Of a stretch of DNA of 46,093 nucleotides, positions 1-46,093 are shown one piece after another. The notes under the pieces are model-generated. The model did no database searches. It saw nothing but the letters and a program-made list of their open reading frames with translations, and was not told where the DNA came from. The position numbers and the translations under genes were made by a program. Every line of letters starts with the position of its first letter. Position 1 is the stretch's first letter. The DNA comes from an uncultured Fidelibacterota bacterium. Lineage in GTDB: Bacteria > Fidelibacterota > Marinisomatia > Marinisomatales > UBA1611. Location of the stretch: the NCBI GenBank assembly GCA_913040915.1, contig CAJWHW010000014.1:1-46093 (forward strand). The letters run 5' to 3'.

Positions 1-3000
1 GTTTCTTTACCATTTTTTTCTGTTTCACCTGCAAGATAAGTGGTATCGGTCAATAGAAAATTCATCGAAAAATAATCATTTGTCTTGTCTAAAAATGTTG
101 AACGATCTAAATCTTCTGTATCTGGGTATTTACCACCCTCTTGAATTTTCGAACCGGTGCCATTACCCTCTGTTCCATTTATTTTAGAATAATTATTAAT
201 ATCATTTTGATCATAATACCAATTATCACCATTAGGGTCTTCATCATCCACATCGCTGGAGGCATTAATCATTTCTGTCTCTCCAGCAGAAAGAAAATCT
301 GAATAAGTTCCGCCTTCTAGGCAGCCACCCCAACCATTTTCATAATCATCAAAGCATCCATCCAAACCAGTATCTTCATCATCTTCTAAAAATCCGTTAC
401 CAAGCGATAGACCTGCTCCAGGAATATCTTCTGTATTTAATATGCCATTCCCATCCATATCTTCGGATATTTTACCCAAATTTAAATGAAGTCGCCCGGA
501 AGTTCCTCTAAGCCATATTTCAAAAAATTTACTTTGTGTTTGATCATAATCACCGGAATATAAAGATGTAGTTACACCTACCCATGTAGAGTCTGGATTA
601 GTATTACGTTGATGTATTTTAGATTTATATCGTAAAACCATCACATCTGTTGTTTCATTTCCTGCTCGCAAAGAAGTGGATTGGTTAGGCCATATATCCC
701 GAGTACGGTAAGGGACGTAAGGATTGTACCAAATCATACTACCACGATTCCTTTGATTGTATTCAAAGCTAAATTCATTCAAATCTTTATTATAAAACAA
801 TGGTGCAGAAGACGCTTTCCAAAACCGTCTTTGAATAGAAGGTGATGTTGTACGTTTACTCCCTTCAAAATCATCAATAAAGGCTACACCATTGGGATCT
901 CCCGTTTCTGGATTACTGATTGAGTTTGGGTTTGGCATTACCTGGGCAACCTCTCCTTCTAAAGAAAAAGATGATAATTTATCTGCTTCAATCAGTGGTA
1001 ATCTATCTAATACTCTAGTTATTCCTTCCATTTCCCATTCGTAACGACCATTCAAATCCCAGATAAAGTTTCTAGTTGGCTCATATCCGACTTCAACTTT
1101 TTCATTAATAATTGATTGATTGAAATAAAGTGCCGTAAACCCAATGAAGGAATTTTTCTGTCCCAAGTCCATTTGAGCCCTGGTTCCAAATATAGTTTTT
1201 TTATCAAAAGAGACTAATTCATGCTTATCATAATTGATTTTAAGTTTAGCATTAGGGTCATTGGCTGCATTGCCTAAAAGAACAATAGTTCCTGTAAAAT
1301 AATCAATATTATAATCCTGTCCGCGTTTTAGAGTAACACCGTTTTGGATTACTTCTTCACTGTTTTCCACTAACATAAATCCTAAATTAATTGTAGAACT
1401 TTGATTCGTGTAAGCTGCTTCTATCATCCATCGATGATCTGCATTTAGCTCTGAAGATACTGAAGATGTATAAAGTACACCAGATCCCAGCTGGTCTTTT
1501 AACTCATTTGACTTGTTACCTCCTTCAAGAGAATCACCTCTAGCAAATGGATGTAAGTGGGGGAACAAAAGCTCACCATCTACCATATTCATAATATTTG
1601 CCATATCTTTATCAATGATTTCATCATAATTACGCTGGCCATTTTCATCTGTACTATCCAAACCAAATAAAGTAATATAAGGAATACTGGTTTTTCTATC
1701 CCGTTCTGTCACAGGGGTAGCATTTTTATTATAAATCTGTACATCAAAACCATCAGGGTTAATTTGTGAAGTTCCCAAATAATATACATTCTTGAACATA
1801 AGAGGCCAGGTAGAATGATTAGGGTGACTATTCCGGGGTTTAAGCATCATCAAGGATAAATTAGTGCCTAGTGAATCAGGGGCCGTACCAACCTTCATAA
1901 TTGTTACACCTGTCGAACGGTCTGCTAGAACAAATGTACACCCAAGGATATCCTGAGAAACTTGCTCCCTTACACGAATAAATCCTAAATCCGGATTTAT
2001 AAAATAATTTGTTCCCTGCTCCAAACGGATGAAACTCCCTTCTTCAATTTCATCAATGTAAGTTGTATCATTAGGATTTTCGGGATCAATAAATGCCGTA
2101 CCAGTTATAGCATCAGCATCATTAGTATTGATAGATTTGTAAAGTTCAAAGTTTTTTATAACAACATTACCTATGGAATGAAGGCCATTTTTTAAGGGGT
2201 AAAAGGATGGAATAGAGACTAATCTTATTTGATCATCAAAAATCACTGTAGTATCTATACCATTACGAAAAGCAGGATGAATAAAAAAGTATCTGTTCTT
2301 AATCCAGTCCACATCCCTGATTTGTTGTTTACTACTTTGTCCTCCACCTTCCCACTCTGATTGCTCTTTTTTAGTTTTTTCAATAGAAGCAATAGTCGTG
2401 ATATCTACAGGGCCTAATTTTGAGATTGCTTTAACACCGAATAGACCCTGATTCTTTCCGGAAAATGTGACATATTTTGTTGAAGGTAAAGATAATGAGA
2501 TATTACCGGCTTCTACATTTTGTACAATATCATCTTCATGTCCTTTGTATGAAATGCGAATATTATTTTCCCAATCAAAATCACGCTCCGAATCCTGATC
2601 CATAGCTACGGTAATTCGGTCTCCTATCTTTCCTTGAATATTTAGATTTTGCTTTTGATCAAATTCTAAATGTGTGTTTTGGGTTTGATTCAAAGTAGAG
2701 CGAACCAATTCCTGATCTTGAAAAACCATTTTTCCATTAATATTCACATTACCACTAACCTGAAGTGATGCGCGACCAAGCCTGCCGATATCCATACCTA
2801 CTACTTCTATCATTTGCCCCCTACGGCTGGTTTTATCATCTTTCGCATCCTTTTGCATCCTTTCCAAAAATGTTTTATGCCAAGCTTGCTGTTGAAACAT
2901 TTTAAGGTACCATTGTACAGAAGCAGTGAAAGGTATCTGAACTTTTTCTCCATCTACAGTTTCCGAAATAGTAATGACTTGCCAGTCCCAAGATAATTCA

Positions 3001-3275
3001 ATATCTGTTTTCCTGCGAGAGAAAGGAAAGGAAATGATTCCAATCGGTGTGGAGATTGTATCTAAGGGTTGTACTAATGTTTTTAGTCTCCTTGGAAATG
3101 GATCAATTACGTAAGGAGATGAGGGTATGTAGGTGGGCAGTAAAATTTGAGAAGGACCATCTATAGCTACGGTATCAATGTCCTGTGCATACAGTATTCC
3201 AAGATATAGGAATCCTAGTAAACCAATTTGGAATAACCGGTTTGAAAATTTTTGATATTTTTTTAAAGTGCTCAA
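1..3275 (-). CDS. sprA: Type IX secretion system outer-membrane translocon SprA/Sov homolog (3' end beyond left edge; >1090 aa visible)
   Basis: Not in ORF track because there is no stop inside the window. Manual translation from TTG at 3275 (in-frame TAA just upstream at 3288-3290): signal-peptide-like MSTLKKYQKFSNRLFQIGLLGFLYLGILYA-QD, then SprA-like motifs EFDQKQNLNIQGKIGDRITVAMDQDSERDFDWENNIRISYKGHEDDIVQNVEAGNISLSL..GLFGVK, LHLNLGKISED, DPNGDNW, NGTEGNG, PDTEDLD. Both ends are in the same frame. Confidence 0.9.
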   Translation of the reverse strand, partial: MSTLKKYQKFSNRLFQIGLLGFLYLGILYAQDIDTVAIDGPSQILLPTYIPSSPYVIDPFPRRLKTLVQPLDTISTPIGIISFPFSRRKTDIELSWDWQVITISETVDGEKVQIPFTASVQWYLKMFQQQAWHKTFLERMQKDAKDDKTSRRGQMIEVVGMDIGRLGRASLQVSGNVNINGKMVFQDQELVRSTLNQTQNTHLEFDQKQNLNIQGKIGDRITVAMDQDSERDFDWENNIRISYKGHEDDIVQNVEAGNISLSLPSTKYVTFSGKNQGLFGVKAISKLGPVDITTIASIEKTKKEQSEWEGGGQSSKQQIRDVDWIKNRYFFIHPAFRNGIDTTVIFDDQIRLVSIPSFYPLKNGLHSIGNVVIKNFELYKSINTNDADAITGTAFIDPENPNDTTYIDEIEEGSFIRLEQGTNYFINPDLGFIRVREQVSQDILGCTFVLADRSTGVTIMKVGTAPDSLGTNLSLMMLKPRNSHPNHSTWPLMFKNVYYLGTSQINPDGFDVQIYNKNATPVTERDRKTSIPYITLFGLDSTDENGQRNYDEIIDKDMANIMNMVDGELLFPHLHPFARGDSLEGGNKSNELKDQLGSGVLYTSSVSSELNADHRWMIEAAYTNQSSTINLGFMLVENSEEVIQNGVTLKRGQDYNIDYFTGTIVLLGNAANDPNAKLKINYDKHELVSFDKKTIFGTRAQMDLGQKNSFIGFTALYFNQSIINEKVEVGYEPTRNFIWDLNGRYEWEMEGITRVLDRLPLIEADKLSSFSLEGEVAQVMPNPNSISNPETGDPNGVAFIDDFEGSKRTTSPSIQRRFWKASSAPLFYNKDLNEFSFEYNQRNRGSMIWYNPYVPYRTRDIWPNQSTSLRAGNETTDVMVLRYKSKIHQRNTNPDSTWVGVTTSLYSGDYDQTQSKFFEIWLRGTSGRLHLNLGKISEDMDGNGILNTEDIPGAGLSLGNGFLEDDEDTGLDGCFDDYENGWGGCLEGGTYSDFLSAGETEMINASSDVDDEDPNGDNWYYDQNDINNYSKINGTEGNGTGSKIQEGGKYPDTEDLDRSTFLDKTNDYFSMNFLLTDTTYLAGETEKNGKE

Positions 3276-3303
3276 GTTCAGTCTTGATTAAACTGATATC
3301 GCT

Positions 3304-3924
3304 TTACTCGATAATATCTCCTTTATCAAAATAAGTTTTTAAAGATTTTTTCATTTTTTCTAGACCCTGAGCTCTATGACTAACCTTGTTCTTTTCAACA
3401 GAAGTCATTTCTGCAAATGTTCTTTTTTCATGCTCAGGTACAAAAACAGGATCATAGCCAAAACCTTCCTTTCCAGTTGATCTTTTTGTAATATTTCCTT
3501 TTATGACACCTTCTGTCCAGAGTTCCGTATTTCCATCCACAAAAGAAATAATAGTTCTGAAATGCGCAGTTCTTTTTTCCAAAGGTATTTCGCCCAATTC
3601 AGTTAATAGTTTTTTTACATTATCTTTAAAAGTTGCTCTCTCACCGGCAAAACGCGCTGAATAAACACCTGGAGCTCCATTTAATGCATCTACCTCCAAT
3701 CCAGTATCATCAGCCAATGATGGTAGCCCAGTAAAATTATGAACCGTTCTTGCTTTTAAAAATGCGTTTTCAATAAGCGTAGTGCCTGTTTCTTTTATAT
3801 CACCTATATCCGGAAAATGATCTAGTCCCACAATATTTACATCCAATTCCGCCAAAAGTCGATTCATTTCTTTTCTTTTATAAATATTATGAGTTGCTAA
3901 AACTAAAGTTTTCCGACGGGACAT
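3304..3924 (-). CDS. rdgB: Non-canonical purine NTP pyrophosphatase (RdgB/HAM1)
   Basis: LATHN..K, ADDTGLEVDALNGAPGVYSAR, GFGYDPVF and SHR motifs. ATG at 3924 preferred over TTG at 3930. Confidence 0.95.
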   Translation of the reverse strand: MSRRKTLVLATHNIYKRKEMNRLLAELDVNIVGLDHFPDIGDIKETGTTLIENAFLKARTVHNFTGLPSLADDTGLEVDALNGAPGVYSARFAGERATFKDNVKKLLTELGEIPLEKRTAHFRTIISFVDGNTELWTEGVIKGNITKRSTGKEGFGYDPVFVPEHEKRTFAEMTSVEKNKVSHRAQGLEKMKKSLKTYFDKGDIIE

Positions 3925-4012
3925 GATCAATGAAACACCACCTAAAAATGACGAGAAACCTATAAGTAATGCAGGGATGAAACAAGAGATAGTTCATTCC
4001 AAGATTTTTCAA

Positions 4013-4043
4013 TTTGTTTTGATAAAACGCTCCGGTAATTTTG
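4013..4043 (+). promoter_or_regulatory. Putative promoter of tRNA-Phe (TTTG-N19-TAATTTTG)
   Basis: Matches the Bacteroidota -33/-7 consensus TTTG-N19-21-TAnnTTTG, 34 nt upstream of the tRNA. Can also be read as a sigma70 TAATTT -10. Confidence 0.5.
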
Positions 4044-4077
4044 CGCCGCTTTTTTAAAGCGTACCCAACCCTAACGT

Positions 4078-4150
<73 letters not shown>

Positions 4151-4275
4151 CTTCTTAATAAAACCGCTACTAAATCGAATTACTGATTTTAAACCGAGTT
4201 TCACAAATATTTTATTTTTGTAAAAAAACCAGTATACAATCAACGAAGAATCTCCTACATTTTCTATTATTTATT

Positions 4276-7200
4276 ATGAAAAGATTAATACCACTTCTAT
4301 TTATTTATTTTTTTGTGAAGGGCGAAATTGTTTATGAATCTGGTAACCTAATTGAGTTTTTTGGTGGTACTGCTCCTGGAAGTACTTATGATAACTGGGT
4401 CAGTCACGTAACAGAAGGTATCGCACGTGAAGATTATAACGATTATGGCCCTAATTGGCTGGATGTACAAACCAACGGTTTCGGAAATTATAAACAATTA
4501 AATCCAGATTCTCCTATTTTAGATTATTGGGAATCTATTTTTTCTTCATTTATTGTTGGGGATACCACAATAGTTGATTCCCTACTCCAGGATTCTCTGA
4601 CATCTTTTTATTATGATTTAGTTATTTTTGAAGATACTTCCTTAAACAAAACCTTTCATCTTCTTCGCGAACAAATTGATTCTGTATTTGTTGACACAAA
4701 CCAAATTCATATTGAAGATGATGATGTAATTGGTGGTTTTCGAAATAGTTGGGGGCTTTACATAATTAACCCTGATGCTAGACGTGAACAGGTGATTATA
4801 CAAGTGCCTCATCCCTGCGACGATTTTATTGCACCATATGTTGCCATGGACCTTTTTCTTGAAATTGATGCATTTAGTTTTATGATTAATGGTGCAGGAC
4901 GCGAAGTCGCCTGGACAGAAGAAGGAACATATACAAATAGCAAATCGCTATCGGACCCATCGAGATATAAACATACCCTTTTCCAAAAATTCCATGAGAT
5001 TGTAACCGAACCGTTGATAAATATCCAACCTCATTGGCCACTTGTATTTGCTATCCATAGTTTTGATAATGCTTCTCACTCGACTAGAAATTCAGTTATT
5101 CTGGCTGCAGGAGCATCTAACTTAAATACAAATAAACCTATTCGGGACATTTCGGAAGACCATTTTGATATTATCAATTTTACCGAAGAATATCCTATAC
5201 CTGCAGGACAATTCTCTAATCCTGAGCCATTACATGTCATACATTATTATGAGGCAAACTATGATTATGAGTTTTTCTATGATAATGGGACAGAACAATT
5301 TCCTGTACATGAATCCACCAGTTTAAATGGTATACAAAACGGCTATCAGATGGTTCACCTTCAAGATCTGGTTAGTGGACTTTCCGTTTATGAACCATGG
5401 GTGCAAGTGGAGATGGATGAGAAACCAATGCTATTCGATAATAACAATCTATCTGATGAGCTAGTTTACTCTCAAGGTATTTATCCAACGAACGTCCATA
5501 ACTTCACAATGGTTCGTGATTATTATCAACCCTTCATTCAGGCCGTTGAGCAATATCTTTTACATTGGGAAACGAGCACGGATTTGACACCCCCAGATTC
5601 AATAGAGTACTTCATGGCCTACAATATGGAATATGGTAATTTGGTTTATCTCACATGGTCGCCTGCATTTGATACCAATTTTAAGACATATGAAATTCAG
5701 TTGGCTGAAGATTCAATAATGTATGATTCTCCAATATTAGATTTATCTGATTATCCATCATTACAATTTATGCGGGATGATGAACAAATTGTGTCCATTT
5801 ATAATGATAATGATCCTTGGTTATTTAGAATTCGAGCACGTGATTATTTTAATAATGTAGGTCCATGGTCTATAACTGTCCCAAATATACTGCCCGGGCA
5901 TAGCCCACCTGACACAATATTATTTTTTGATGAAAATACGGAAATTTTGAGCATCTATGATGAAGATATAGACCAAAATGATTATTCAATTGATACATTA
6001 ATGACGATGCCCGGGTTGAGCCCAACTCTTGCCCTTTACGGCAATACTTGGAAGGTGATACAGATTGAGCCATTTTTTCCAGAGACAACAACTATTCTCC
6101 AATTCTTTGCGCAAATTGACAGTATTTCTGAAATCCAGGCCATAGGTTTTTCAGATGGAGAAAAACATCTGCGATATTCTTTGGCAGGGACAGAAACTCT
6201 GGACATAGAAAAATGGATTCCTGTTTACCAAGGCTCAGGAATAGAAAATGTATGGCGTTCTTACGAAATTCCCATAGGGACAGATTGGTTAGCATGGTAT
6301 GATTCTCTATCTCCTATAAATAAAATTGAGTTTATAAATGACCACGGTGACACTGCACATGCTCCAGGGAGTATCCATTACAGTATGATCCTAGATTTAT
6401 CACCTGATTTACCTATTGCTCCAACTGTTTTAATTGATTATTCAACAGATGACCTAAGGATTGAAAACAACCAGGAAACCATGTCATTTATATTCACATG
6501 TACAGTTATTGATTCAGATTCATACAATTTTAAATATCTATGGGAATTTGGTGATGGCGGTACATCTGAAAATAAAAACCCCACGCATGACTATGTTATT
6601 GAAGATGACCACGAGTATGCTGTAATTCTTACAGTAGAAGATGAAACAGGATTACAAGGCTGGGCAACAACTGTAATTCAAATCGATGACGGAGAATCTT
6701 CTTTTCCTCTTACCATGAATTTTGTTGGTGATATAATGATGGGAAGAAGATTTGAGGATGAAAATGGGATTATAACAAATCAGGGAGTGAATGCTCTTTT
6801 TGAACCAACATACGAAATTCTAGGAGCAGCAGCAGATATTACAATAGCAAATCTCGAAATACCTTTATCTGATCAGGGGTCACCTCACCCAACTAAAAGT
6901 ATTGTCTTTCGCTCTTCTCCATCAAATGTTGGTGGATTGATTTATGGTGGAATTGATGTAGTATCTCTAGCAAATAATCATATTTTGGATTTTATGGAAC
7001 CTGGTATGATCCAGACACAAAACTTGCTGGATGAAGTAGGAATTCGCCATTCCGGCGCAGGGATGAATAGCTACGAGGCATATTTACCTGCTATTTTGTC
7101 TCGCAAAGGTCAGACCATTGCTTTCCTTGCATCTAGTGATAGAACCGGACAATATAACAATTACCAGCCTTATTTAAATGCCGGTGAAAACAAACCCGGC

Positions 7201-9030
7201 TTTGCTTACATGACGCCCTATTATCTGAAACAACAGATCCAGTCTGTAAGAGATTTTACAGATTTGTTAGTCGTTGAGATGCATGCTGGAAGTGAGTATT
7301 CCTATGCTCCAGGTTCTGATTATGATTTCTTTGATTATCCAGGTGGGTTTTCCGCCATGCGTATTAATCCTGCGAGTACAGTAGGCTATGAGCTAGATCC
7401 ATTGGTTGGTCTGGAAGAAGAAGATTATTCACCGCGGTTGGATAGGCCTCAAATGTGGGATCGTTCCATTCGCCAGTTCGCTATTGACGAAGGTGCAGAT
7501 GCAGTCATTGTTCATCACCCTCATATCATTCAAGGAGTAGAAGTGTATAAAGGGAAAATAATTGCACATTCACTAGGAAATTTTATTTTTGATCTGAATT
7601 ATCCTGAAACCTATCCATCTATTATCTTAAATGCTGAAGCGGATGAATCAGGATTCTATTCCTATTCTATTACACCTCTTTATATTGATGATTACTTAAC
7701 TGTTCCTGCCAAAGGAGAACTTGCTAATTATATTCTGGATTACATTGCTATGCGATCCAGAGAATTGGATACATATGTTCATGTAGATTCTGATAATCAT
7801 TTAGCAACGGTTATAATGGATTCAACTACTCTTCAGATCCAAATACTGGATTATATAGTGCAATTGAGAGATACAAAACAGTTCCAGTTCAATGAGCAGG
7901 CTTACTTTAAATCCGATCCAATTCCAATAGCTGAAGCCGGCAGTATTTCAGAAATAATGAGTGGATATCATCATATCACTCATTATCGATTAGGACGTGA
8001 AAAAATTTGGATGAAAAATTTTGAAAATGAAGGTAGTACCCTTTGGAATTTTAACAGTGAAAGTGAATTCATTGATGATTCTGTGTACCGCCGTGGCGGA
8101 GAAGCTGCAGTTCAAATCCGGCAAGAAAGTTCATCAGAAAATGTGATTACAAATTTAGAGAACAGAGTTCCTTTTAAAAACGAACTCGAACATACAATTC
8201 ATGGATTTATAAAAACTCATAATGCGAAAGATGCAACATTACAATTAAGGCTAGCTGAGAGCAGAAGCGATGAGAGTTTGATGACTGTATCATTAGATGA
8301 TTCTGTTCAAGAAGAGATGGACTGGCACTATTACTGGGGATTGGCACCAACCCATGAAGATGCCAATTTCTTTGATATACGGATGAGTTCCAGTCCGCCC
8401 GATTCCGGTCAATCACAAGTCTGGTTTGATGATGTGGGTTTAATTGAATGGGACAGTTTACAATCTTTTACCGATTTACCCATCTCAGTAACACACCCCA
8501 ATGATTATAATTATATTCAGATTTATTTTACTCAAACACAAATGGGACCTATAAATGTTCAAATAAGGAATGATATCATTGGTGATTTAGGGCCTTTAAC
8601 GGCCCGACCAAAGGCTGTTAAAACAAATATCACAGTACCAGGAAAATTTCATTTATATGATGAATCAATCGGCCCTGTTGGTAATAGAAATTGGAATTTT
8701 ATCGATGAAATTGGCGGAAATGGTAGAACACCTGTTTTTTACTGTGAAGAACCGGGAATTTATGAATTATCTCTAACTGTTACCGGTCCAAACGGGACTG
8801 AAGACACTGGTTATTTGACAGTTGTTGGCCTGGCAGAAGATGTAGAACAACACAGTATAGGTGACGTCAATGGCGATGGTAGTTTAACTGCAGTTGATGT
8901 GATGCTCTGTATCAATTTCCTGTTAAAACTGATTGAACTTGAACCAGAAGAATTTTTGGCAGCAGATGTGGATGGAAATGGAATAATTGAAATTTATGAT
9001 GCATTACTTATTTCTGATTTATTTAACTAG
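4276..9030 (+). CDS. Large secreted multidomain protein: putative Zn-hydrolase domain, FN3-like, jelly-roll, PKD, CapA/PGA_cap metallophosphatase, CBM-like, PKD, type I dockerin
   Basis: Signal peptide; PKD motif YLWEFGDG; CapA motifs FVGDIMMGR, ANLE, SLANNHILDF, EMHAGSEY, HHPHIIQGVE, HSLGNFIFD; C-terminal duplicated dockerin GDVNGDGSLTAVD...ADVDGNGIIEIYDAL. Confidence 0.85.
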   Translation: MKRLIPLLFIYFFVKGEIVYESGNLIEFFGGTAPGSTYDNWVSHVTEGIAREDYNDYGPNWLDVQTNGFGNYKQLNPDSPILDYWESIFSSFIVGDTTIVDSLLQDSLTSFYYDLVIFEDTSLNKTFHLLREQIDSVFVDTNQIHIEDDDVIGGFRNSWGLYIINPDARREQVIIQVPHPCDDFIAPYVAMDLFLEIDAFSFMINGAGREVAWTEEGTYTNSKSLSDPSRYKHTLFQKFHEIVTEPLINIQPHWPLVFAIHSFDNASHSTRNSVILAAGASNLNTNKPIRDISEDHFDIINFTEEYPIPAGQFSNPEPLHVIHYYEANYDYEFFYDNGTEQFPVHESTSLNGIQNGYQMVHLQDLVSGLSVYEPWVQVEMDEKPMLFDNNNLSDELVYSQGIYPTNVHNFTMVRDYYQPFIQAVEQYLLHWETSTDLTPPDSIEYFMAYNMEYGNLVYLTWSPAFDTNFKTYEIQLAEDSIMYDSPILDLSDYPSLQFMRDDEQIVSIYNDNDPWLFRIRARDYFNNVGPWSITVPNILPGHSPPDTILFFDENTEILSIYDEDIDQNDYSIDTLMTMPGLSPTLALYGNTWKVIQIEPFFPETTTILQFFAQIDSISEIQAIGFSDGEKHLRYSLAGTETLDIEKWIPVYQGSGIENVWRSYEIPIGTDWLAWYDSLSPINKIEFINDHGDTAHAPGSIHYSMILDLSPDLPIAPTVLIDYSTDDLRIENNQETMSFIFTCTVIDSDSYNFKYLWEFGDGGTSENKNPTHDYVIEDDHEYAVILTVEDETGLQGWATTVIQIDDGESSFPLTMNFVGDIMMGRRFEDENGIITNQGVNALFEPTYEILGAAADITIANLEIPLSDQGSPHPTKSIVFRSSPSNVGGLIYGGIDVVSLANNHILDFMEPGMIQTQNLLDEVGIRHSGAGMNSYEAYLPAILSRKGQTIAFLASSDRTGQYNNYQPYLNAGENKPGFAYMTPYYLKQQIQSVRDFTDLLVVEMHAGSEYSYAPGSDYDFFDYPGGFSAMRINPASTVGYELDPLVGLEEEDYSPRLDRPQMWDRSIRQFAIDEGADAVIVHHPHIIQGVEVYKGKIIAHSLGNFIFDLNYPETYPSIILNAEADESGFYSYSITPLYIDDYLTVPAKGELANYILDYIAMRSRELDTYVHVDSDNHLATVIMDSTTLQIQILDYIVQLRDTKQFQFNEQAYFKSDPIPIAEAGSISEIMSGYHHITHYRLGREKIWMKNFENEGSTLWNFNSESEFIDDSVYRRGGEAAVQIRQESSSENVITNLENRVPFKNELEHTIHGFIKTHNAKDATLQLRLAESRSDESLMTVSLDDSVQEEMDWHYYWGLAPTHEDANFFDIRMSSSPPDSGQSQVWFDDVGLIEWDSLQSFTDLPISVTHPNDYNYIQIYFTQTQMGPINVQIRNDIIGDLGPLTARPKAVKTNITVPGKFHLYDESIGPVGNRNWNFIDEIGGNGRTPVFYCEEPGIYELSLTVTGPNGTEDTGYLTVVGLAEDVEQHSIGDVNGDGSLTAVDVMLCINFLLKLIELEPEEFLAADVDGNGIIEIYDALLISDLFN

Positions 9031-12176: not shown

Positions 12177-12821
12177 ATGCAAAGGGTTATGATCATTTTT
12201 ACTCTTTCAATACTTTTTGGTCAGTCAAAATATCCTGCTGATTCTTTACTGGTATCTCCTGAAATCCCTATTATACATAAGATAGGACTTATACCAATAG
12301 CTGGCTGGCAACGTATTTCATACAATACAAAACTGCTTAATTGCCAATTTCACCCAAGTTGTTCAAATTATGGTGCTTTAGCAGTGAAAGAGTTTGGTGT
12401 GATTCGCGGAGGTGCCATGGCTAGTGAGAGAATTGTTCGGTGTAATCCATTTGCCCTTGATTATCAATTAAAATATAGGCGGGGATTCAATCAAAAAGAT
12501 GGACGATTAGAAGACCCATTAATTCAAATAAAAATGGTGGAACCAAAAAAATCACCTATCCTAGCTGCAATATTTTCAGCTGTGCTCCCAGGTTCTGGCC
12601 GAATCTATGCTGGACGTACATTAGATGGGATTATGGGTAGTTGGGTTACATTTATCATTGGAAATACTGCATACCTGGCCACTAAAAACAAAAGAACACT
12701 TATAGCACCACTTTATACAAGTATTTTCTTTTTTGTATATTTTGGAGAAATCTATGGAGGCTGGCGAGCGGCAAAATATAATGAACTTTCTAAAAATAAA
12801 ATTGATGAGAACTCTTTTTGA
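12177..12821 (+). CDS. YidD-like (membrane protein insertion efficiency factor) domain fused to TM2-like membrane domain
   Basis: CQFHPSCSNYG...ERIVRCNPF YidD signature; KKSPILAAIFSAVLPGSGRIYAG TM2-like motif; signal-peptide-like N-terminus. Confidence 0.8.
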   Translation: MQRVMIIFTLSILFGQSKYPADSLLVSPEIPIIHKIGLIPIAGWQRISYNTKLLNCQFHPSCSNYGALAVKEFGVIRGGAMASERIVRCNPFALDYQLKYRRGFNQKDGRLEDPLIQIKMVEPKKSPILAAIFSAVLPGSGRIYAGRTLDGIMGSWVTFIIGNTAYLATKNKRTLIAPLYTSIFFFVYFGEIYGGWRAAKYNELSKNKIDENSF

Positions 12822-12944: not shown

Positions 12945-13361
12945 TTAGTATTCTTCTACTTCAAGTAGGTCAACTTCAAAAATTAAAGTTGCTCCCGGTG
13001 GAATTAAAGCTCCTGCACCTCGGTCTCCATATCCCAATTCAGAAGGAATGATTAATTTTCGTTTTCCGCCAACTTTCATACTTTTAACTCCCAAATCCCA
13101 GCCTTTGATCACAGAACCCACTCCCAAAGTAAAAGTAAAAGGCTCTCTACCCGGTTTCAAGGATGAATCAAATACAGTTCCATCTTCTAATGTACCAGTA
13201 TAATTCACAACAACCTTATTAAAATCTTTTGCTTCGGCTCCATCACCGATGACTATATCTTCGATCTTTAATCCATTTTCCATTGTATTTACCTGTCCTT
13301 TTTGGCAACCAGAGAACAGTAATAAAAGCCCGATTGCAATAAGTTTATTAATAATTTTCAT
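12945..13361 (-). CDS. FKBP-type peptidyl-prolyl isomerase, predicted lipoprotein
   Basis: [42 protein letters not shown]. Start at 13361 gives a lipoprotein signal ending FSG-C, with SD-like GGTGAGG upstream. Confidence 0.92.
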
Positions 13362-13396
13362 AGTATGTTGATTCCTCACCTTGTAAAAAAAGGGTG

Positions 13397-13406
13397 GTAA
13401 ATTTAC
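13397..13406. promoter_or_regulatory. Palindrome GTAAATTTAC giving a TAAATT -10-like box on both strands between divergent FKBP and rarA genes
   Basis: Perfect 10-bp palindrome. The plus-strand copy has an extended -10 TG and lies 9 nt before the rarA ATG. Confidence 0.45.
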
Positions 13407-13412
13407 TGTACT

Positions 13413-39098: not shown

Positions 39099-39761
39099 AT
39101 GATTGAATTTATTAATTCTGAATTTCATTTTTTTATTCTTTGCCTAACAACCCTTTTTACATTGATTAATCCAATTGGAATTGCACCAGTATTACTGGTT
39201 ATGACTGAGAGGTTCTCTAAACAAGATAGAATTAATATTGCCAAGACCGGCTCACTTACAGCTTTTTTAACTTTAATTATATTTTCTATTCTGGGTTCAG
39301 TCATTTTCAATTTTTTTGGAATTACAATTGAGGCCTTTCAAATCATGGGAGGCATTTTATTTTTTCGTAGTGGTTTGAAAATGTTGGATGCAAAATTAAG
39401 CAGATCTAGGACTACACCTACTGAACAGGAAGAATCCCAAGAAAGTGATGATATTGCTATCAGTCCCATTGGTATTCCTCTTATTGCCGGGCCTGGGGCA
39501 ATTACGGCCTCAATGCTCTTATCAAGTCAAACACCTCAGCTATACAGTTATGCTACTCTGGTAGTATCAATATTACTTGTATTATCTATTGTTTATTTGA
39601 TTTTACGAAGTGGGAATATCATATTAAGGGCCCTTGGATACACTGGAATGCGGATTATACAACGGTTGATGGGATTAATTTTAATGGTAATTGCAGTACA
39701 GTTTATAATTGATGGCGTCTTAACAGTAGTAGAACCAATAATCAATAATTCATCACTTTAG
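39099..39761 (+). CDS. MarC-family membrane protein
   Basis: INPIG, FQIMGGILF, P.GIPLIAGPG, RLMGLIL; about six TM helices. Confidence 0.93.
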   Translation: MIEFINSEFHFFILCLTTLFTLINPIGIAPVLLVMTERFSKQDRINIAKTGSLTAFLTLIIFSILGSVIFNFFGITIEAFQIMGGILFFRSGLKMLDAKLSRSRTTPTEQEESQESDDIAISPIGIPLIAGPGAITASMLLSSQTPQLYSYATLVVSILLVLSIVYLILRSGNIILRALGYTGMRIIQRLMGLILMVIAVQFIIDGVLTVVEPIINNSSL

Positions 39762-42700
39762 AAGAAGCATTTTTTGTATACGCATTTCTTGTCCAGCAGT
39801 TAACTGTAAAAAATAAATTCCTGTGCTTACCATATTTCCAAATTGATTTTCTCCGTACCATTTAAATTCATGACGTCCACCAGGAACATCATTCAAATCC
39901 AGAGTTTTAACTGTTCTTCCTAGTAAATCATATATTACAATATTTACATTTCTAATATCCGGTAAATCATATCGTATAGTAGTTACGGGATTGAATGGGT
40001 TTGGATAATTGTTATAAACAGAAAATTTTTCTGGTAGAATTTCAACATCTATGTAGGTAATCCCTTTTTGCAACACCATCCCTTTTCTATTTTTGAATTC
40101 ATATTGTAGTCGTGTCTGAAAAAGTTCCTGATCGGAAGATGGAAGAATTAGTGTTAAAGTAGAATCAAAACCTAGTCGATCCGCAATAGAAAATTGAATT
40201 AAACCTGTGGTCGTGTCAGTCGCTGTAAACATAAATGTTGTTGGTCTGGGTCGAACCATTTTCATTTCCATCACATTCATATTTGATTCACCAATAAGAA
40301 GTTCAGCTGTATAAACATTCTTAGGAATATTCATAACTAATTCTTCCCCTTGAGCACTAAAAGATAATTCATCCAATGTCTTTGCTGCAATTAGCGAAGA
40401 ATCAAAGTCTAGTTTAAAATAACGCCAGTTCCACATTTTACCAAATGCAGCTAAATCAGTTAAGTCAGCTTCATCATCTGGCGATGGACGGACATGGGGT
40501 GGGTCTCCTTTAATTGGCCCTAAATCTGTTTCAGGCCAGGTTTGGTTAAAAGCTAGAATATCGTCAACTGTAATATCATAATCATCATTTAGATCTGCCC
40601 AGAGTCTGCTAAAAAACTGGATAGTATCTGTAACCTGTAGTGTATTATACGCAACAGCACTATCTACAATCACAGTTAATGTATCATAACTTGCCAATGT
40701 ATCAGTCCAAATTACTGTTATTACTGAATCTTCATAAGTGTGGGAAACAATAAAATTTGTGTCTACCACCGATTTTATTGAAAGATCATATTGATATATT
40801 GGCCGGTTGAATTTAATGGTAAGTGTATCCTTATCTAATACAGATAAATATTTTGCAGAATCAACAATTACATTTGGTGTGATTTTTTTCACAATTGGAA
40901 TTAAATCATCAAAATAAATTCCGTCCGTTCTTGCTGTATGGGACTGATTTGTAGCTAAATCAATAGCTCTGATATAGGTATAATACAATGTATCACGCAG
41001 TAGGCTAAGTCCAGTAACAGTCATGCTGTCTGTACTGTCAGATCTCATCCAATCTAAGACATTTGTTGTATCATCTCCCGTACCGATTGCGAGTTGATAA
41101 TAATCGATTTCTGAATTATCACTGAAGTTTGACCAAATATAACTTAATCTCGTAGAATCAACAGCATAATCCAAATCCATAACCCAATAAGCATCAATAA
41201 TTGATCCTGTATCCGGGTTTTGGACATCGATATATATGCTATTACCCCAAATAGTATCTGAAAGGTTTCCGGCTGAATCTCTTACAAAAACACCCCCATA
41301 ATAAATTCCGTCATTACTCAAGGTGAGACCCCCTAATCCTGCTAGAGAATCATAAGTGGTAAGCGTCCAGTTTAATATATCAGTTAAATTTGAATCTGTA
41401 CCTAAAGCAACATATCCATCACGCACACCTGCTAATGAGTCAAATGAATTCCAATATAAAGTAATAGAATCAGAACGATTATAATAATCAATATCCAACC
41501 CTTCATTCCCTTCTAATAAATTAGTAACCATTGGTTTTGTTTTATCCAAAATTAAAAAACTATTATCACTTGTAGTTGTTACTGGGGTGCCGGTATTACC
41601 TGCTGTATCTAAAAAAGTTATATTAAATAGAATAGTATCCTCGGCATCAGTTTCAGTGACTGTTTTTGCAATTCTCCAGTATCGCCCTGCATTAGTTCCA
41701 GTACCGACCAAGGAATCTAATGCTAATACAGCATTTACAAAGTTCAAGCCTTCGCTACTGATAAAATCAAGAGTAACCTCATCATCCATTTTTGCCCAGG
41801 TTGTATCTAATTCATTATTTGAGTAAAGTTTAATTTCATCTAATGTTGGAACTATTTGGTCAATATGGATGGTGGACATACTGGCAGTACCCGCAGTTGT
41901 ATTCCCCGCTTTATCCCAGATAAGTGCTTCAAAAGTTGCATTCTCACCTTCCAAAAACCCTGTTGAAGATTCAAAGTTTTCATCTGGAATGATGACATTT
42001 TTTTCCGTCCCTAAATCAACTTGTTCAATTAAAATGGTATCGGTTATAATAGAAATATTCTCGCCAAATTTTGTTTTGATCTGGATCCCGCCATCAACTA
42101 AGGTTTCATCATTATCAACAGGGACTATCAGCATTAGACTTTGATTTGATGAATTCCAATATCCATCAACTTCTGTTCCTTCTTTTGATAAGACCTCTCC
42201 TAAAACAAAATCTGTAGGTGGTGTCATATCAAACAGAACCGAAGAAGCATCTGTAGTTGTTTCAATGGTATCTCCAATATTTCCAACCAAGTCAGTATAA
42301 ACAATCATAAAAGGAATATAACCCTCTTCCTCTTCTCCATTCATGAGTCGCATTGACCGATAAGGAATGCGAGCGGGATTTTCATAGGTTGTGTCTGCAA
42401 TAAATCCTGCAATAGTTACTTCTGAAGAGTACAAATCTTCATCTGTATTAAAATCTAGTACCAGAGTATCACCAATAGTGGCTAGGTCATTTTCTAACTC
42501 ATTTGTAGATAAAAATGCTACACTGGTCAGAGTTGGATTTGTACCATCGAAACGAACCTGACTACCATCAGTTGTCTCTGAAACACCCAAACCTAGATTA
42601 CCTGCTGAATCACCAAATACAATATTAAAATTCACTAAACCGTCATCATCTGTTTCTTGAAAAGTATATGCTAAAGTCCATTCTCTATTCTCTCCTATGG

Positions 42701-45700
42701 GTATACCATCCTGGTTTAACATTTGAATATGAATCGAATCCAAGCCTTCAGAGGAAGTAAAGGATAATGTGTCTGTATCACCTACTTTAGCAAGTGAATC
42801 TGCAATGGCATTATTTGTCCTTTGGCTTACTAATTCTAAAGTAGGTAATATTTCATCGATATGAATAGTAGATGAGCTGACAGTACCTATAGTTGTATTC
42901 CCTGCTTTATCCCAAATTAGCGCTTGGAAACTAGCATTCCCACCTTCGATAAAATCATCAACACTTTCAAAATCTATTTCAGAAACAGATATAGTCTTAT
43001 TTGTTCCTAGGTCAATTTCTTCTATTAATACCGTATCTGCTAAATTCGAAAAACTTTCTCCAAAAGATGATTGTAGTTGAATCCCTCCATTTGGCAAAGT
43101 TTCATCATTGGAGATCGGGACAATCAAATCCAAGGTTTGATTTGATGAATTCCAAAAACCTGAAATTTCAATTCCATCTCGAGATGTTACTTCTCCAAGA
43201 GTGAAATTAGTTGGTGGTGTCATATCGAATAAAACACTGCTACTGTTTGATGTTGTATTAACTATTTCACCTATGTTACCTACCCAATCTTCAAGGCCAG
43301 ATATGGAGAAAGGAATAAACCCCTCAGTTTCAATTCCAGTCACAATATAAACAGCTTGATATTTACCATCGATAAATGATGTTTCATTTGGTGGATTATT
43401 TGCAATAGTAATATTAGCAGCCCTCAATGTTTCTGATGATGTATATTGTAAAAAAAGAGAATCGCCTAGAATGCTTAAAGTGGTGTCCAGGTTATTATTA
43501 CTAAAAAATGTTATGAAAGTCAGACTGGGCGGTGTACCATCAAAACGAACCTTAGACCCATCTTGAGTGGTTGTGATTGTATCGGAACCATTACCTGCAG
43601 AATCCGTCATGGAAAGTGAAAAAGACACCCAACCATCTAAATCATCATCTGTAAATGTGCGTATCGCAGAATAGTTTAATGCATCTTTAATTGGTGTTAG
43701 AGTCTGATCAGCTATTTCTACATTTAATTCACGACGCGGTTCGCTAAGACTGAAAAAAATTGTATCAACTGTACCAATTCCTGCCAGAGAATCGCCATAT
43801 AAGTTGTTTGTAGCCATCCGAACTGATGAAATCTCTGGTACTGTTTTATCAAATCTAACTCTGGAATTATTTGTAGTAGTATCTGCATCAGGGCCGATAG
43901 CCCCGCCTAAATCTGAATAACTGATCAAAAAAGGAATTTCACCCTCATTATCTAACTCTTCCATAATATGATATCCGCGATATTTCATCAGAGATAGTTC
44001 ATCATAATTAGCAGCCGCACCAGCAATGGTGATTGTTATTTCATCTAATACTTCGGAAGCTTTAAAAGTAACAAAAACAGAGTCTCCAATTTTTGCCCAA
44101 GTAGTATCAGTGCCACTAGAAGAAATGCTTGTAGATTCAATTTCTGGTGGATAGATGTCATGATTTACATAACTTTCGTCTGTCGTAGTCATAACCTGAA
44201 TTCCGGAGTTACCAGCTCGATCTCTAAAATCAATGGTAAATTCTAAAATACCTTCAGGCTCATTTCCTGAAATAGTTAAGGTTGCTGTGTAAGTGCCACC
44301 TAACTCAGTTAAAGTTGTTACTTGCTCTGCGATGGTAACCACAATTGAATCCATGATGAGCGGTTCTTCAGGCGTGAATGAAAGATAAACTTCATTCCCT
44401 CCTACAGCAATTACTGTATTGTTATCATTATTTGACTCGATATGAACCATAGAAAGGGTTGGTAAAGTCCTATCAAAAATAACATAACTTTCATCCGTTG
44501 TTTCTATAATCGGTGAACTCTCAATTCCTACACTGTCAGTTACGATGATTTCAAATATGATATTTCCTTCAGGATCACCATCATCCATTGCATAGGCTGC
44601 AGTATAATTCTGATTTCCTAAATCTGAAATGATTGCAGATTGATTAACAATTGATCCAATCTGAGATGACAATAATTCTTCTGCAGTGAAAGTTACAATT
44701 ACTGTATCACCAACTTTTGCCCATTCGGTTGATGGATTATTTGATAAAATTGATACAGGGTTTAATGTAGGCGCCGTATTATCAAACGTAACTTGGGTAC
44801 CATCTGTTGTTTCAGATGAACCTTCGGTGGGATTGCCTCTGGAATCAGTTAATGTGCCGATTTGAAATGGTATGACTCCGTCTTCATCGCTTTCTTGCAT
44901 CGTATAGGCCCCTGACCAACGGTTACTACCCAGATTAGAAATATTAGCTGAATTATTAGAAATGGTTGTGGTAGGAGTAAGAATTTCTACATCAGTTTCA
45001 AAAGTTAAGGTAATTACATTTCCAACTGTTGCCAGAGAAGAATCAGAAAAATCCGACTCATAGGAAACACTGACTAATGAGGGTGGTGTTTCATCAATAA
45101 GTAACTTCGTAGAACTTTCATTTCCTACGGTCTCATTTCCTGGGATGTCAAAAAGTCTAGCTTTTAAAGTGATCGTGTCATTTTCTGCAAAACCAGTAAT
45201 CTGTCTTACAGATTCTCCAGTGATAGACATGGTCTTAGTTCCTCCAACTTCTGCAGTAAGAATGAAAGAAGAGTTACCCAACATCTCAAATGAATTTGAA
45301 CCGACTTTTGCCCAAATTTGAACGCGGCCACTATCTAAAGTTGTATCACTATCTATAGGTACAATTATATCTAATCCAGTATTGGTAGAATTCCAAATAT
45401 TATCCACAGCATTTCCTCCGATGGAAGATGCTGCACCAACTGTGAAGTCCGATGGAGATGTTTGATCAAATATGATATAAGTATTATCTGTTGTCGATCG
45501 AACCGTATCACCACTATTACCCGCAGAATCAACGAATGCTATTCCGAATTGAATTAACCCTTCGGTATCTGTATTTGAAAAAGTATATCCTAAATCAAAT
45601 TCGTCCGGTCCGTACTGATGACCTGTGGTGCCAAAACCATTGAAAGTACAATTTATGGACAAAAGACCTTCACTGGCATTTACATAAAGTCTTGCAGAAT

Positions 45701-46093
45701 CATTTTCCAAGGCCCATTGTGAGTTCCAAGGATTATTTGTCTGAGCATTTACCTGGTCTAATATAGGCTTAGTTCGATCAAAAACTACCTTACTGCCATC
45801 GGATGTTGTTGTAAAGCCATCAGCAGGATTTCCTCTTGCATCAACTAATTGATTAACAATATATGAAACAATACCTTCATCATCAGTTTCAGTCATGGTA
45901 TAAGTTCCAGACCAATTAAAACTACCCAAGTCTGTAACTAGGCCATCGCCTCCGGAAATAGTTAGGGTTGGTGTTTGGATAAGTTCATCAACTTCAAATG
46001 TGATGGTAATAACATCATCTACTTTGGCCTTAGTAGAGTCCTGATTATTGGACTCAATATGGGAATTCACAAATGCTGGGGAAATCTGATCAA
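39753..46093 (-). CDS. Giant acidic Ig/FN3-repeat surface protein with C-terminal T9SS type A/FlgD-Ig sorting domain (5' end beyond right edge)
   Basis: Frame stays open upstream of GTG 46070 to the edge (DQISPAF, a repeat-boundary motif). Tandem repeats with D.AGN and D.T.P. C-terminus NYPNPFNPVTTIRYDLP..IYDLLGR..W.G....STGIYF..KMLLLK. Confidence 0.9.
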   Translation of the reverse strand, partial: DQISPAFVNSHIESNNQDSTKAKVDDVITITFEVDELIQTPTLTISGGDGLVTDLGSFNWSGTYTMTETDDEGIVSYIVNQLVDARGNPADGFTTTSDGSKVVFDRTKPILDQVNAQTNNPWNSQWALENDSARLYVNASEGLLSINCTFNGFGTTGHQYGPDEFDLGYTFSNTDTEGLIQFGIAFVDSAGNSGDTVRSTTDNTYIIFDQTSPSDFTVGAASSIGGNAVDNIWNSTNTGLDIIVPIDSDTTLDSGRVQIWAKVGSNSFEMLGNSSFILTAEVGGTKTMSITGESVRQITGFAENDTITLKARLFDIPGNETVGNESSTKLLIDETPPSLVSVSYESDFSDSSLATVGNVITLTFETDVEILTPTTTISNNSANISNLGSNRWSGAYTMQESDEDGVIPFQIGTLTDSRGNPTEGSSETTDGTQVTFDNTAPTLNPVSILSNNPSTEWAKVGDTVIVTFTAEELLSSQIGSIVNQSAIISDLGNQNYTAAYAMDDGDPEGNIIFEIIVTDSVGIESSPIIETTDESYVIFDRTLPTLSMVHIESNNDNNTVIAVGGNEVYLSFTPEEPLIMDSIVVTIAEQVTTLTELGGTYTATLTISGNEPEGILEFTIDFRDRAGNSGIQVMTTTDESYVNHDIYPPEIESTSISSSGTDTTWAKIGDSVFVTFKASEVLDEITITIAGAAANYDELSLMKYRGYHIMEELDNEGEIPFLISYSDLGGAIGPDADTTTNNSRVRFDKTVPEISSVRMATNNLYGDSLAGIGTVDTIFFSLSEPRRELNVEIADQTLTPIKDALNYSAIRTFTDDDLDGWVSFSLSMTDSAGNGSDTITTTQDGSKVRFDGTPPSLTFITFFSNNNLDTTLSILGDSLFLQYTSSETLRAANITIANNPPNETSFIDGKYQAVYIVTGIETEGFIPFSISGLEDWVGNIGEIVNTTSNSSSVLFDMTPPTNFTLGEVTSRDGIEISGFWNSSNQTLDLIVPISNDETLPNGGIQLQSSFGESFSNLADTVLIEEIDLGTNKTISVSEIDFESVDDFIEGGNASFQALIWDKAGNTTIGTVSSSTIHIDEILPTLELVSQRTNNAIADSLAKVGDTDTLSFTSSEGLDSIHIQMLNQDGIPIGENREWTLAYTFQETDDDGLVNFNIVFGDSAGNLGLGVSETTDGSQVRFDGTNPTLTSVAFLSTNELENDLATIGDTLVLDFNTDEDLYSSEVTIAGFIADTTYENPARIPYRSMRLMNGEEEEGYIPFMIVYTDLVGNIGDTIETTTDASSVLFDMTPPTDFVLGEVLSKEGTEVDGYWNSSNQSLMLIVPVDNDETLVDGGIQIKTKFGENISIITDTILIEQVDLGTEKNVIIPDENFESSTGFLEGENATFEALIWDKAGNTTAGTASMSTIHIDQIVPTLDEIKLYSNNELDTTWAKMDDEVTLDFISSEGLNFVNAVLALDSLVGTGTNAGRYWRIAKTVTETDAEDTILFNITFLDTAGNTGTPVTTTSDNSFLILDKTKPMVTNLLEGNEGLDIDYYNRSDSITLYWNSFDSLAGVRDGYVALGTDSNLTDILNWTLTTYDSLAGLGGLTLSNDGIYYGGVFVRDSAGNLSDTIWGNSIYIDVQNPDTGSIIDAYWVMDLDYAVDSTRLSYIWSNFSDNSEIDYYQLAIGTGDDTTNVLDWMRSDSTDSMTVTGLSLLRDTLYYTYIRAIDLATNQSHTARTDGIYFDDLIPIVKKITPNVIVDSAKYLSVLDKDTLTIKFNRPIYQYDLSIKSVVDTNFIVSHTYEDSVITVIWTDTLASYDTLTVIVDSAVAYNTLQVTDTIQFFSRLWADLNDDYDITVDDILAFNQTWPETDLGPIKGDPPHVRPSPDDEADLTDLAAFGKMWNWRYFKLDFDSSLIAAKTLDELSFSAQGEELVMNIPKNVYTAELLIGESNMNVMEMKMVRPRPTTFMFTATDTTTGLIQFSIADRLGFDSTLTLILPSSDQELFQTRLQYEFKNRKGMVLQKGITYIDVEILPEKFSVYNNYPNPFNPVTTIRYDLPDIRNVNIVIYDLLGRTVKTLDLNDVPGGRHEFKWYGENQFGNMVSTGIYFLQLTAGQEMRIQKMLLLK
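40895..46093 (-). repeat. Intragenic tandem domain array A-A-B-A6-B-A-A-B-A-C-C
   Basis: Manual parse of the protein: 11 type A units (~103 aa; SNN..AKVGD..D.EG..D.AGN..TTD...FD.T.P), 3 type B units (~123 aa; WNS.N..L.VP..D.TL), 2 FN3-like type C units (D.DY..W..ALGT..D.A.N). DNA 20-mer TTTGATTTGATGAATTCCAA recurs at 42140 and 43136 (996 nt apart). Confidence 0.85.

Follow-up and report, generated by a model that had tools for sequence, protein, structure and literature searches.

A predicted SprA/Sov-type translocon gene and a candidate type IX secretion cargo in a Marinimicrobia genome, with a conserved sprA-centred gene array in its relatives

The closest described counterparts of the system considered here are the type IX secretion systems (T9SSs) of Flavobacterium johnsoniae and Porphyromonas gingivalis, whose translocons, SprA (6H3I/6H3J, 2403 aa) and Sov, belong to the same family, TIGR04189 (the NCBIfam equivalog for the T9SS outer membrane translocon Sov/SprA; cut-off, 200 bits). 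In P. gingivalis, PorQ anchors PorZ and PorV anchors PorU, and the four make up the attachment complex (PMC12365241). Most of the T9SS abstracts found call the system specific to Bacteroidota; T9SS core proteins and cargo with a C-terminal sorting domain (CTD) are also described beyond this phylum, within the Fibrobacteres-Chlorobi-Bacteroidetes (FCB) group (PMC11285876, PMC5837995, PMC12398890), with one review referring to an FCB-superphylum system (PMC12398890) and Bochtler et al. reporting BLAST hints of a T9SS in Chlorobi, Fibrobacteres, and Ignavibacteriae (PMC5837995). The stretch of DNA analysed here (contig CAJWHW010000014.1, 46,093 nt; hereafter the window) very probably starts inside sprA, an orthologue of the Bacteroidota T9SS translocon gene with a function assigned by homology, in a genome of the Marinimicrobia. 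Like the suspected T9SSs of Fibrobacterota, Chlorobiota, Ignavibacteriota, Gemmatimonadota, and Cloacimonadota, amongst which the Marinimicrobia are not listed, it lies outside Bacteroidota and inside the FCB group.

The window cuts sprA at its left edge and the open reading frame (ORF) of a giant candidate cargo protein at its right edge. NCBIfam models were run on 30 of the 35 distinct window ORFs of at least 100 aa, with three more searched against Pfam only and two nested ORFs left out. The reading starts from one feature:

3..3275, minus strand: sprA, N-terminal 1091 codons of about 2111; TIGR04189 match; TTG start at 3275

The frame has no stop before the left edge of the window, and the C-terminal half of the gene lies beyond it. 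Against TIGR04189 the fragment scores 463 bits in NCBIfam (E 2.2e-138) and aligns best over residues 402-1072, which correspond to positions 359-1108 of the 2319 in the model. At 36% G+C, chance cannot plausibly account for a frame that stays open for 1091 codons and also matches the family at 463 bits, and by homology the frame is assigned as the N-terminal half of a SprA/Sov orthologue. The initial annotation had pointed to a minus-strand ORF of >1090 aa with SprA-like motifs and had proposed a search with SprA family models; the search bears this out, with a match well above the cut-off, though the gene described there as hidden simply runs off the window. The fragment has no match in Pfam because the SprA_N domain (PF14349), which spans residues 1017-1477 in the full-length relative P0002, falls mostly beyond the window edge.

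The relative P0002 (2111 aa) shares the start codon of the window gene and is 99% identical to the fragment (1079/1091), with all 1091 residues aligned. It scores 762 bits against TIGR04189 and in a phmmer search of the PDB matches F. johnsoniae SprA (6H3J and 6H3I; E 2e-62 and 2.8e-62, respectively) over query residues 384-1699 and chain residues 402-1853, a homology extending over approximately 1300 residues. Compared with F. johnsoniae SprA, the Marinimicrobia protein is from a different phylum and is approximately 290 residues shorter (2111 vs 2403 aa); its relatives range from 2009 to 2139 aa. Among the matches listed, PF14349 is present in all of at least 120 SprA homologues, and 11 of the 13 homologues named by their source are called SprA or gliding motility protein, the other two being a ‘hypothetical protein’ and a locus name only. 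Judged by eye, the N-terminus of SprA in the window frame (...LLGFLYLGILYAQD...; ...RLFQIGLLGFLYLGILYAQD...) resembles a Sec signal peptide. The predicted signal peptide (window 3275-3180, minus strand) ends in ILYA immediately before QD, at a position where relatives have a conserved GQ, and mature SprA may begin with glutamine, reminiscent of the ‘Q-rule’ of Bacteroidetes (both by eye).

At the opposite end of the window lies the protein that would be exported by such a translocon:

39753..46091, minus strand: candidate cargo of a T9SS, 2112 aa or more; open at the 5' end; diverged modules of about 104 aa and a C-terminal sorting domain
39756..40007, minus strand: type A T9SS CTD of this protein (TIGR04183, PF18962)

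The protein ends in ...NYPNPFNPVTTIRYDL...RIQKMLLLK, followed by the stop codon, and over residues 2029-2109 of 2112 (approximately 39765-40007) is matched by TIGR04183 (33.2 bits; cut-off, 23) and PF18962 (29.4 bits; cut-off, 27). The initial annotation had flagged it as bearing a sorting domain, and the type A CTD above both curated cut-offs agrees with that claim. The matches to FlgD_ig and Por_Secre_tail are both C-terminal, and the rest of the protein belongs to no Pfam or NCBIfam family. The motif F[DN]xTxP occurs every ~104 residues, and a BLAST of the protein against itself detected no repeats at E<=1e-3. With a CTD profile built from the related loci described below, the cargo is the sole match (90.6 bits) among window ORFs of at least 80 aa, a score to be read in light of the window CTD being among the seeds. 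The giant repeat protein is thus treated as a candidate T9SS cargo, for which export and removal of the CTD are predicted by homology. The system resembles those of F. johnsoniae and P. gingivalis in the giant SprA protein with its signal-peptide-like start, in its type A CTD proteins, and, in relatives, in its putative PorV/PorQ-family barrels.

With each GTDB species represented by one genome, a scan returned 150 stretches encoding SprA relatives, and the best 80 of the 150 (loci L001-L080) were taken with flanks of ~10 kb on each side of sprA; the 895 non-nested ORFs of these loci form 174 clusters. All eight SprA homologues that name an organism, among the matches listed, belong to Marinimicrobia or Fidelibacterota, and the record titles of the best 80 of 150 include 38 with Marinimicrobia, Neomarinimicrobiota, or Fidelibacterota, one with the FCB group, and one with Winogradskyella. 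NCBI taxonomy places Candidatus Neomarinimicrobiota in the phylum Fidelibacterota of the FCB group, and earlier names for the Fidelibacterota are Marine Group A and SAR406 (PMC11652737). Housekeeping genes of the window are syntenic with those of the Marinimicrobia-labelled locus L007, including a short-chain dehydrogenase/reductase (81%), NUDIX (70%) and haloacid dehalogenase-type (69%) proteins, a PGA_cap protein (71%), and rdgB (69%), and with those of L021, including TopA (74%), HisS (65%), and LptD (67%). By its closest relatives and its syntenic genes, which fall in Marinimicrobia-type records, the window genome is assigned to the Marinimicrobia (SAR406, Fidelibacterota), which belong to the FCB group but not to Bacteroidota. 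The initial annotation had proposed a non-Bacteroidota FCB genome, and had named an ordinary Bacteroidota genome as the outcome that would make the locus unremarkable; the genome is not of that kind.

The sprA gene of the window is preceded by a housekeeping gene on the same strand:

3304..3930, minus strand (likely true start, ATG at 3924): rdgB, Ham1-family non-canonical purine NTP pyrophosphatase (PF01725, TIGR00042)
3276..3303, minus strand: spacer of 28 nt from the end of rdgB to the start codon of sprA, read from the sequence
4078..4151, plus strand: tRNA-Phe (GAA), found with ARAGORN; bounds the upstream side of the rdgB-sprA unit, between rdgB and a divergent gene for a 1584-aa protein

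The assignment of rdgB rests on 212.8 bits with PF01725 and 183.8 bits with TIGR00042 (cut-off, 145). No terminator-like site was found in 2900-4600, which includes the 28-nt spacer, and promoter-like sites in this region are no commoner than in shuffled sequence (4 vs 5.8), in a scan that is uninformative for this phylum. The close linkage of the two genes, to which the initial annotation had drawn attention, proved to be conserved: rdgB is directly upstream of sprA on the same strand in 76 of the 80 loci, that is, in all 76 that hold upstream DNA, as the contigs of the other four begin inside or just before sprA. The gap spans 1-390 nt across the 76 pairs, 16 of which have the same 28-nt gap as the window. 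A listed ORF of 118 codons at 3887..4243 (minus strand) overlaps the tRNA-Phe gene and is therefore considered spurious. The product of the divergent gene (4276-9030, plus strand; 1584 aa) begins with a signal-peptide-like segment and contains a PKD and a PGA_cap (capsule-synthesis/metallophosphatase-like) domain; it ends in a type I dockerin, not a T9SS sorting domain, and has a counterpart with 71% identity in the same place in L007. In another locus a gene for a GspD/PilQ-type secretin lies some kilobases upstream of the rdgB-sprA pair (L078:5063-7162, minus strand; TIGR02517, 161 bits; cut-off, 351).

T9SS genes are scattered in Bacteroidota, whereas in the relatives of the window genome sprA heads a fixed array that includes PorZ-like and PorV/PorQ-like genes. 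The genes of the array lie on the strand of sprA, with gaps mostly of a few bases and in near-constant order wherever the contig extends; all 11 genes are present in 22 loci, and the exceptions are a single missing or doubled gene in four loci. Two examples and the members downstream of sprA, with the number of loci in which each occurs, are as follows:

L019:16212-26312 and L004:6966-16961, downstream of sprA: examples of the array
Directly after sprA, gap mostly -4 to +10 nt: M28 peptidase with a lipoprotein-like start; PF04389, 110 bits; 60 of 80 loci
Ig-like (immunoglobulin-like) lipoprotein, 286 aa; 55 of 80 loci
PorZ-like one-propeller protein, ~556 aa, with a CTD-like end; 56 of 80 loci
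Barrel one, PorV/PorQ family, ~317 aa; 55 of 80 loci
Barrel two, PorV/PorQ family, ~290 aa; 50 of 80 loci
YibQ-type deacetylase; 49 of 80 loci
Asparaginase II; 48 of 80 loci
CTD-bearing nuclease-like protein, ~580 aa, with EEP nuclease/phosphatase, lamin-tail (LTD), and sorting domains; 38 of 80 loci
Conserved protein at the array end, at least 396 aa; 26 of 80 loci

The initial annotation had stated that no other T9SS gene lies in the window, and this holds for the window as such; the absence reflects the position of the window edge, because relatives carry the PorV/PorQ-family barrels and the PorZ-like protein directly downstream of sprA. Barrel one scores 84.5-85.9 bits against the PorV/PorQ family model NF033709 (cut-off, 90), and a search with its profile finds F. 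johnsoniae PorV (chain F of 6H3I; E 1.2e-5). Barrel two scores 43 bits against NF033709 and 42.5 bits against the PorQ model, and its profile matches the same PorV chain at E 6.8e-9. The CTD of the 580-aa EEP and LTD protein is above the cut-offs of both TIGR04183 and PF18962 (34-42 bits). The PorZ-like protein shows weak similarity to the C-terminal parts of two models, that for PorZ (NF052228, 18-38 bits; cut-off, 260) and that for PorU, and its AlphaFold2 model consists of one beta-propeller and a C-terminal sandwich (pLDDT 83.1, pTM 0.79), for which the top Foldseek matches are a tie between BT4673 (3OTT, TMq 0.37) and PorZ (5M11, TMq 0.41), both at E 5.7e-11. A complex of the PorQ-like barrel two with the PorZ-like protein was predicted with weak support (score 0.32; best of three controls, 0.00), with at least 65% of contacts agreeing between runs and a partner pLDDT of at least 82. 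Of 157 solved complexes 116 attain this mark, as do 2 of 215 mismatched pairs (rough counts, own alignments having been used), and a score of at most 0.60 belongs to just 18 of these solved complexes and to both passing mismatches.

For two members of the array a role is harder to suggest. The profile of the 286-aa lipoprotein returned nothing below E 0.3 from the PDB, and its AlphaFold2 model (pLDDT 86.9) consists of generic tandem Ig/FN3-like sandwiches, so that no specific role can be assigned. The conserved protein at the array end (L004:15657-16961, L019:25152-26312, and 20 further loci), most copies of which are cut at the 10-kb flank limit, has a mean column identity of 63% and no match in Pfam, NCBIfam, or the PDB; its nearest ESM Atlas clusters (0.94-0.95) are hypothetical proteins, one of them named for T9SS C-terminal target proteins, which is a lead only.

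With PorV/PorQ-like and PorZ-like genes following sprA, the array resembles a translocon joined to attachment-complex-like genes, minus a recognisable PorU. Like the P. gingivalis attachment complex (PorU-PorV, PorZ-PorQ), the Marinimicrobia would encode together two PorV/PorQ-family barrels and a CTD-ended propeller protein; unlike it, no PorU-type sortase is seen, and two further genes, for an M28 peptidase and an Ig-like lipoprotein, intervene. No paper found in the literature search describes the array, and the conservation of a sprA-centred array across the phylum, as it appears from the gene order of the sampled loci, is what this work adds.

Several observations weigh against assigning a T9SS to this organism. 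None of GldK/L/M/N, PorT/SprT, PorW/SprE, PorP/SprF, or the catalytic region of PorU was found in the window ORFs scanned, where the only other T9SS-named match is a tetratricopeptide repeat cross-match to PorW/SprE (29 bits; cut-off, 250). The same motor, ring, and other T9SS components were not found in the scanned representatives from the ~10-kb sprA flanks of the 80 relatives, for which NCBIfam was run on 120 of the 153 unexplained cluster representatives at E<=1e-12, with 55 lacking a match rescanned at E<=1e-4 and 33 left out as <185 aa or SprA fragments. The PorU model (NF033707) is matched at the CTD end only (model positions ~1000-1095), with no C25-like catalytic region in the window or flanks, and the further T9SS-type matches in the flanks are more CTD-bearing proteins and nothing else. 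In contrast to F. johnsoniae and P. gingivalis, then, the motor, ring, PorU, Plug, and PorW partners are not seen in the window or flanks, and the machine is incomplete in all of the DNA examined. To this are added the two barrels, both under the curated PorV/PorQ cut-off (85.9 and 43 vs 90 bits), and the PorZ-like protein, which resembles the sensor domains of hybrid two-component systems (HTCS) equally well and has one propeller where PorZ (5M11) has two. The N-terminus of the cargo, and hence any signal peptide, is off the right edge of the window, and the C-terminal half of sprA and the downstream cluster are attributed to this organism from relatives at 50-99% identity.

It could be that the window is foreign DNA, either a mis-binned Bacteroidota contig or a recent horizontal transfer, which would make a non-Bacteroidota T9SS an artefact; one related locus, L048, is indeed titled Winogradskyella sp. 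The rdgB and SprA of L048 have 58-59% identity to those of the window, as do other Marinimicrobia loci, and L048 is therefore itself likely to be a contig wrongly binned into a Bacteroidota metagenome-assembled genome, while all other titles that name a phylum among the best 80 loci are Marinimicrobia, Fidelibacterota, or FCB group. The housekeeping genes around the window sprA show synteny with Marinimicrobia-labelled contigs, the G+C content varies little along the window (32-39%), and the identities of SprA and rdgB to their window counterparts correlate over 75 loci (Spearman, 0.73), so that the two genes have diverged together. Mis-binning of the window from Bacteroidota was rejected on these grounds, and a foreign origin of either kind is regarded as so improbable that it hardly affects the reading; because of the syntenic neighbours, the even G+C, and the co-variation of SprA with rdgB, sprA is judged native to the phylum and vertically inherited, neither a Bacteroidota contaminant nor a recent import. 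It is also very improbable, if somewhat less so, that the SprA-family barrel has another role, for example in general surface or outer-membrane biogenesis, with the CTD-like domains being ordinary Ig-like or FlgD-like folds. Such a role would fit the higher score of the CTD region with FlgD_ig (41 bits) than with Por_Secre_tail (29-33 bits), and the accessory proteins that fall below curated cut-offs, but the CTD matches are at the extreme C-terminus and above both curated cut-offs, further CTD proteins are encoded in the sprA cluster (38 of 80 loci) and its flanks, and the SprA, PorV-like, PorQ-like, and PorZ-like genes are co-localised. SAR406 genomes are furthermore reported to hold many CTD proteins, 24 in one bin (PMC5596340).

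A different question, raised in the initial annotation, is whether the T9SS itself might be divergent or minimal. The compact, phylum-wide sprA operon could represent a streamlined system in which CTD proteins are exported by SprA, the PorV/PorQ-type barrels, and the PorZ-like protein, with the GldKLMN motor and ring reduced or absent and a metallopeptidase in place of the cysteine-type sortase PorU; the conserved M28 lipoprotein peptidase beside sprA might then process the CTD. The lack of GldK/L/M/N, PorT, PorW, PorP, and the PorU catalytic region in the window and in ~10 kb around sprA in 80 relatives is in keeping with this idea, as is the M28 gene directly after sprA in 60 of 80 loci. This absence, however, rests on a small fraction of each genome, gldKLMN are normally unlinked to sprA in Bacteroidota genomes also, and the M28 gene may be an unrelated passenger of the operon, like rdgB and asparaginase II. 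In the passages searched, Fidelibacter and Marinimicrobia genome papers do not contain the words ‘gliding’ (PMC11652737, PMC6143742) or ‘motility’ (PMC6143742), which would suit a reduced system, whereas in characterised systems cargo held by PorV is reported to require an input of energy to leave the translocon (PMC12365241). On balance a streamlined system is thought unlikely, though it is the least improbable of these alternatives; if true, it would be the simplest natural version of the T9SS.

Under the preferred reading, a T9SS whose translocon is the SprA orthologue of the window, proteins exported by Sec and carrying a CTD of ~80 aa would, by homology, thread through the SprA barrel, with the giant repeat protein of more than 2112 aa (39753-46091) and the nuclease-like protein of the array as examples of such cargo. 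From SprA the cargo would pass to a PorV-type barrel, and the PorQ-like and PorZ-like pair may have an attachment-complex role, helping to release the cargo or fix it at the surface, again as in the homologous systems. The motor and ring, of the GldLM and GldKN type, would be expected to be encoded elsewhere in the genome, while the M28 peptidase beside sprA is, by its position alone, a candidate for removing the CTD.

Apart from these genes, the window contains several others of note:

12177-12821, plus strand: ORF of 214 codons with a YidD domain (residues 35-92) and a long C-terminal extension; conserved at 37-45% identity in L025, L026, L031, L032, and L033
12870-12943: tRNA-Thr (CGT)
12945-13427, minus strand: FKBP-type isomerase; BamJ family match of 65.9 bits, below the cut-off of 100
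14714-18220, plus strand: LptD, 1168 aa; PF19838 (LptD_2), 324 bits, and an LptD_N domain

As has been reported previously, SAR406 genomes contain many proteins with a Por sorting domain, which Thrash 2017 read as sorting factors, not cargo (PMC5596340); that work concerns the same phylum and the same domain, and in its available text describes neither SprA nor a sprA-centred array. A keyword search of a literature library returned no paper dealing with the machinery of a T9SS in Marinimicrobia, SAR406, or Marinisomatota. None of the secretion terms looked for occurs in PMC8630151 or PMC6143742, and in PMC8542988 the T9SS appears in the reference list only. NCBI records already name homologues ‘cell surface protein SprA [Candidatus Marinimicrobia bacterium]’. 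The novelty implied by the initial annotation was thus overstated, given that SprA is named in Marinimicrobia by NCBI and that CTD proteins of SAR406 are in print (PMC5596340). The occurrence of SprA and CTD cargo in a non-Bacteroidota FCB genome is real, and adds to the range of a known system a phylum that is sister to Bacteroidota and in which the genes are already annotated.

The Marinimicrobia are among the most abundant uncultured groups of oceanic bacterioplankton, and the array would provide a concrete route to the cell surface for the CTD-tagged enzymes and adhesin-like giant proteins of SAR406, which bears on how these organisms may attack polymers and particles. In practice the benefit is modest, since databases already annotate the genes. 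Their clustering makes the array a handy basis for comparing genomes to see which T9SS parts are indispensable. A sprA array that is conserved and, as the loci compared indicate, vertically inherited in the Marinimicrobia adds weight to the view that the T9SS predates the split of the FCB phyla.

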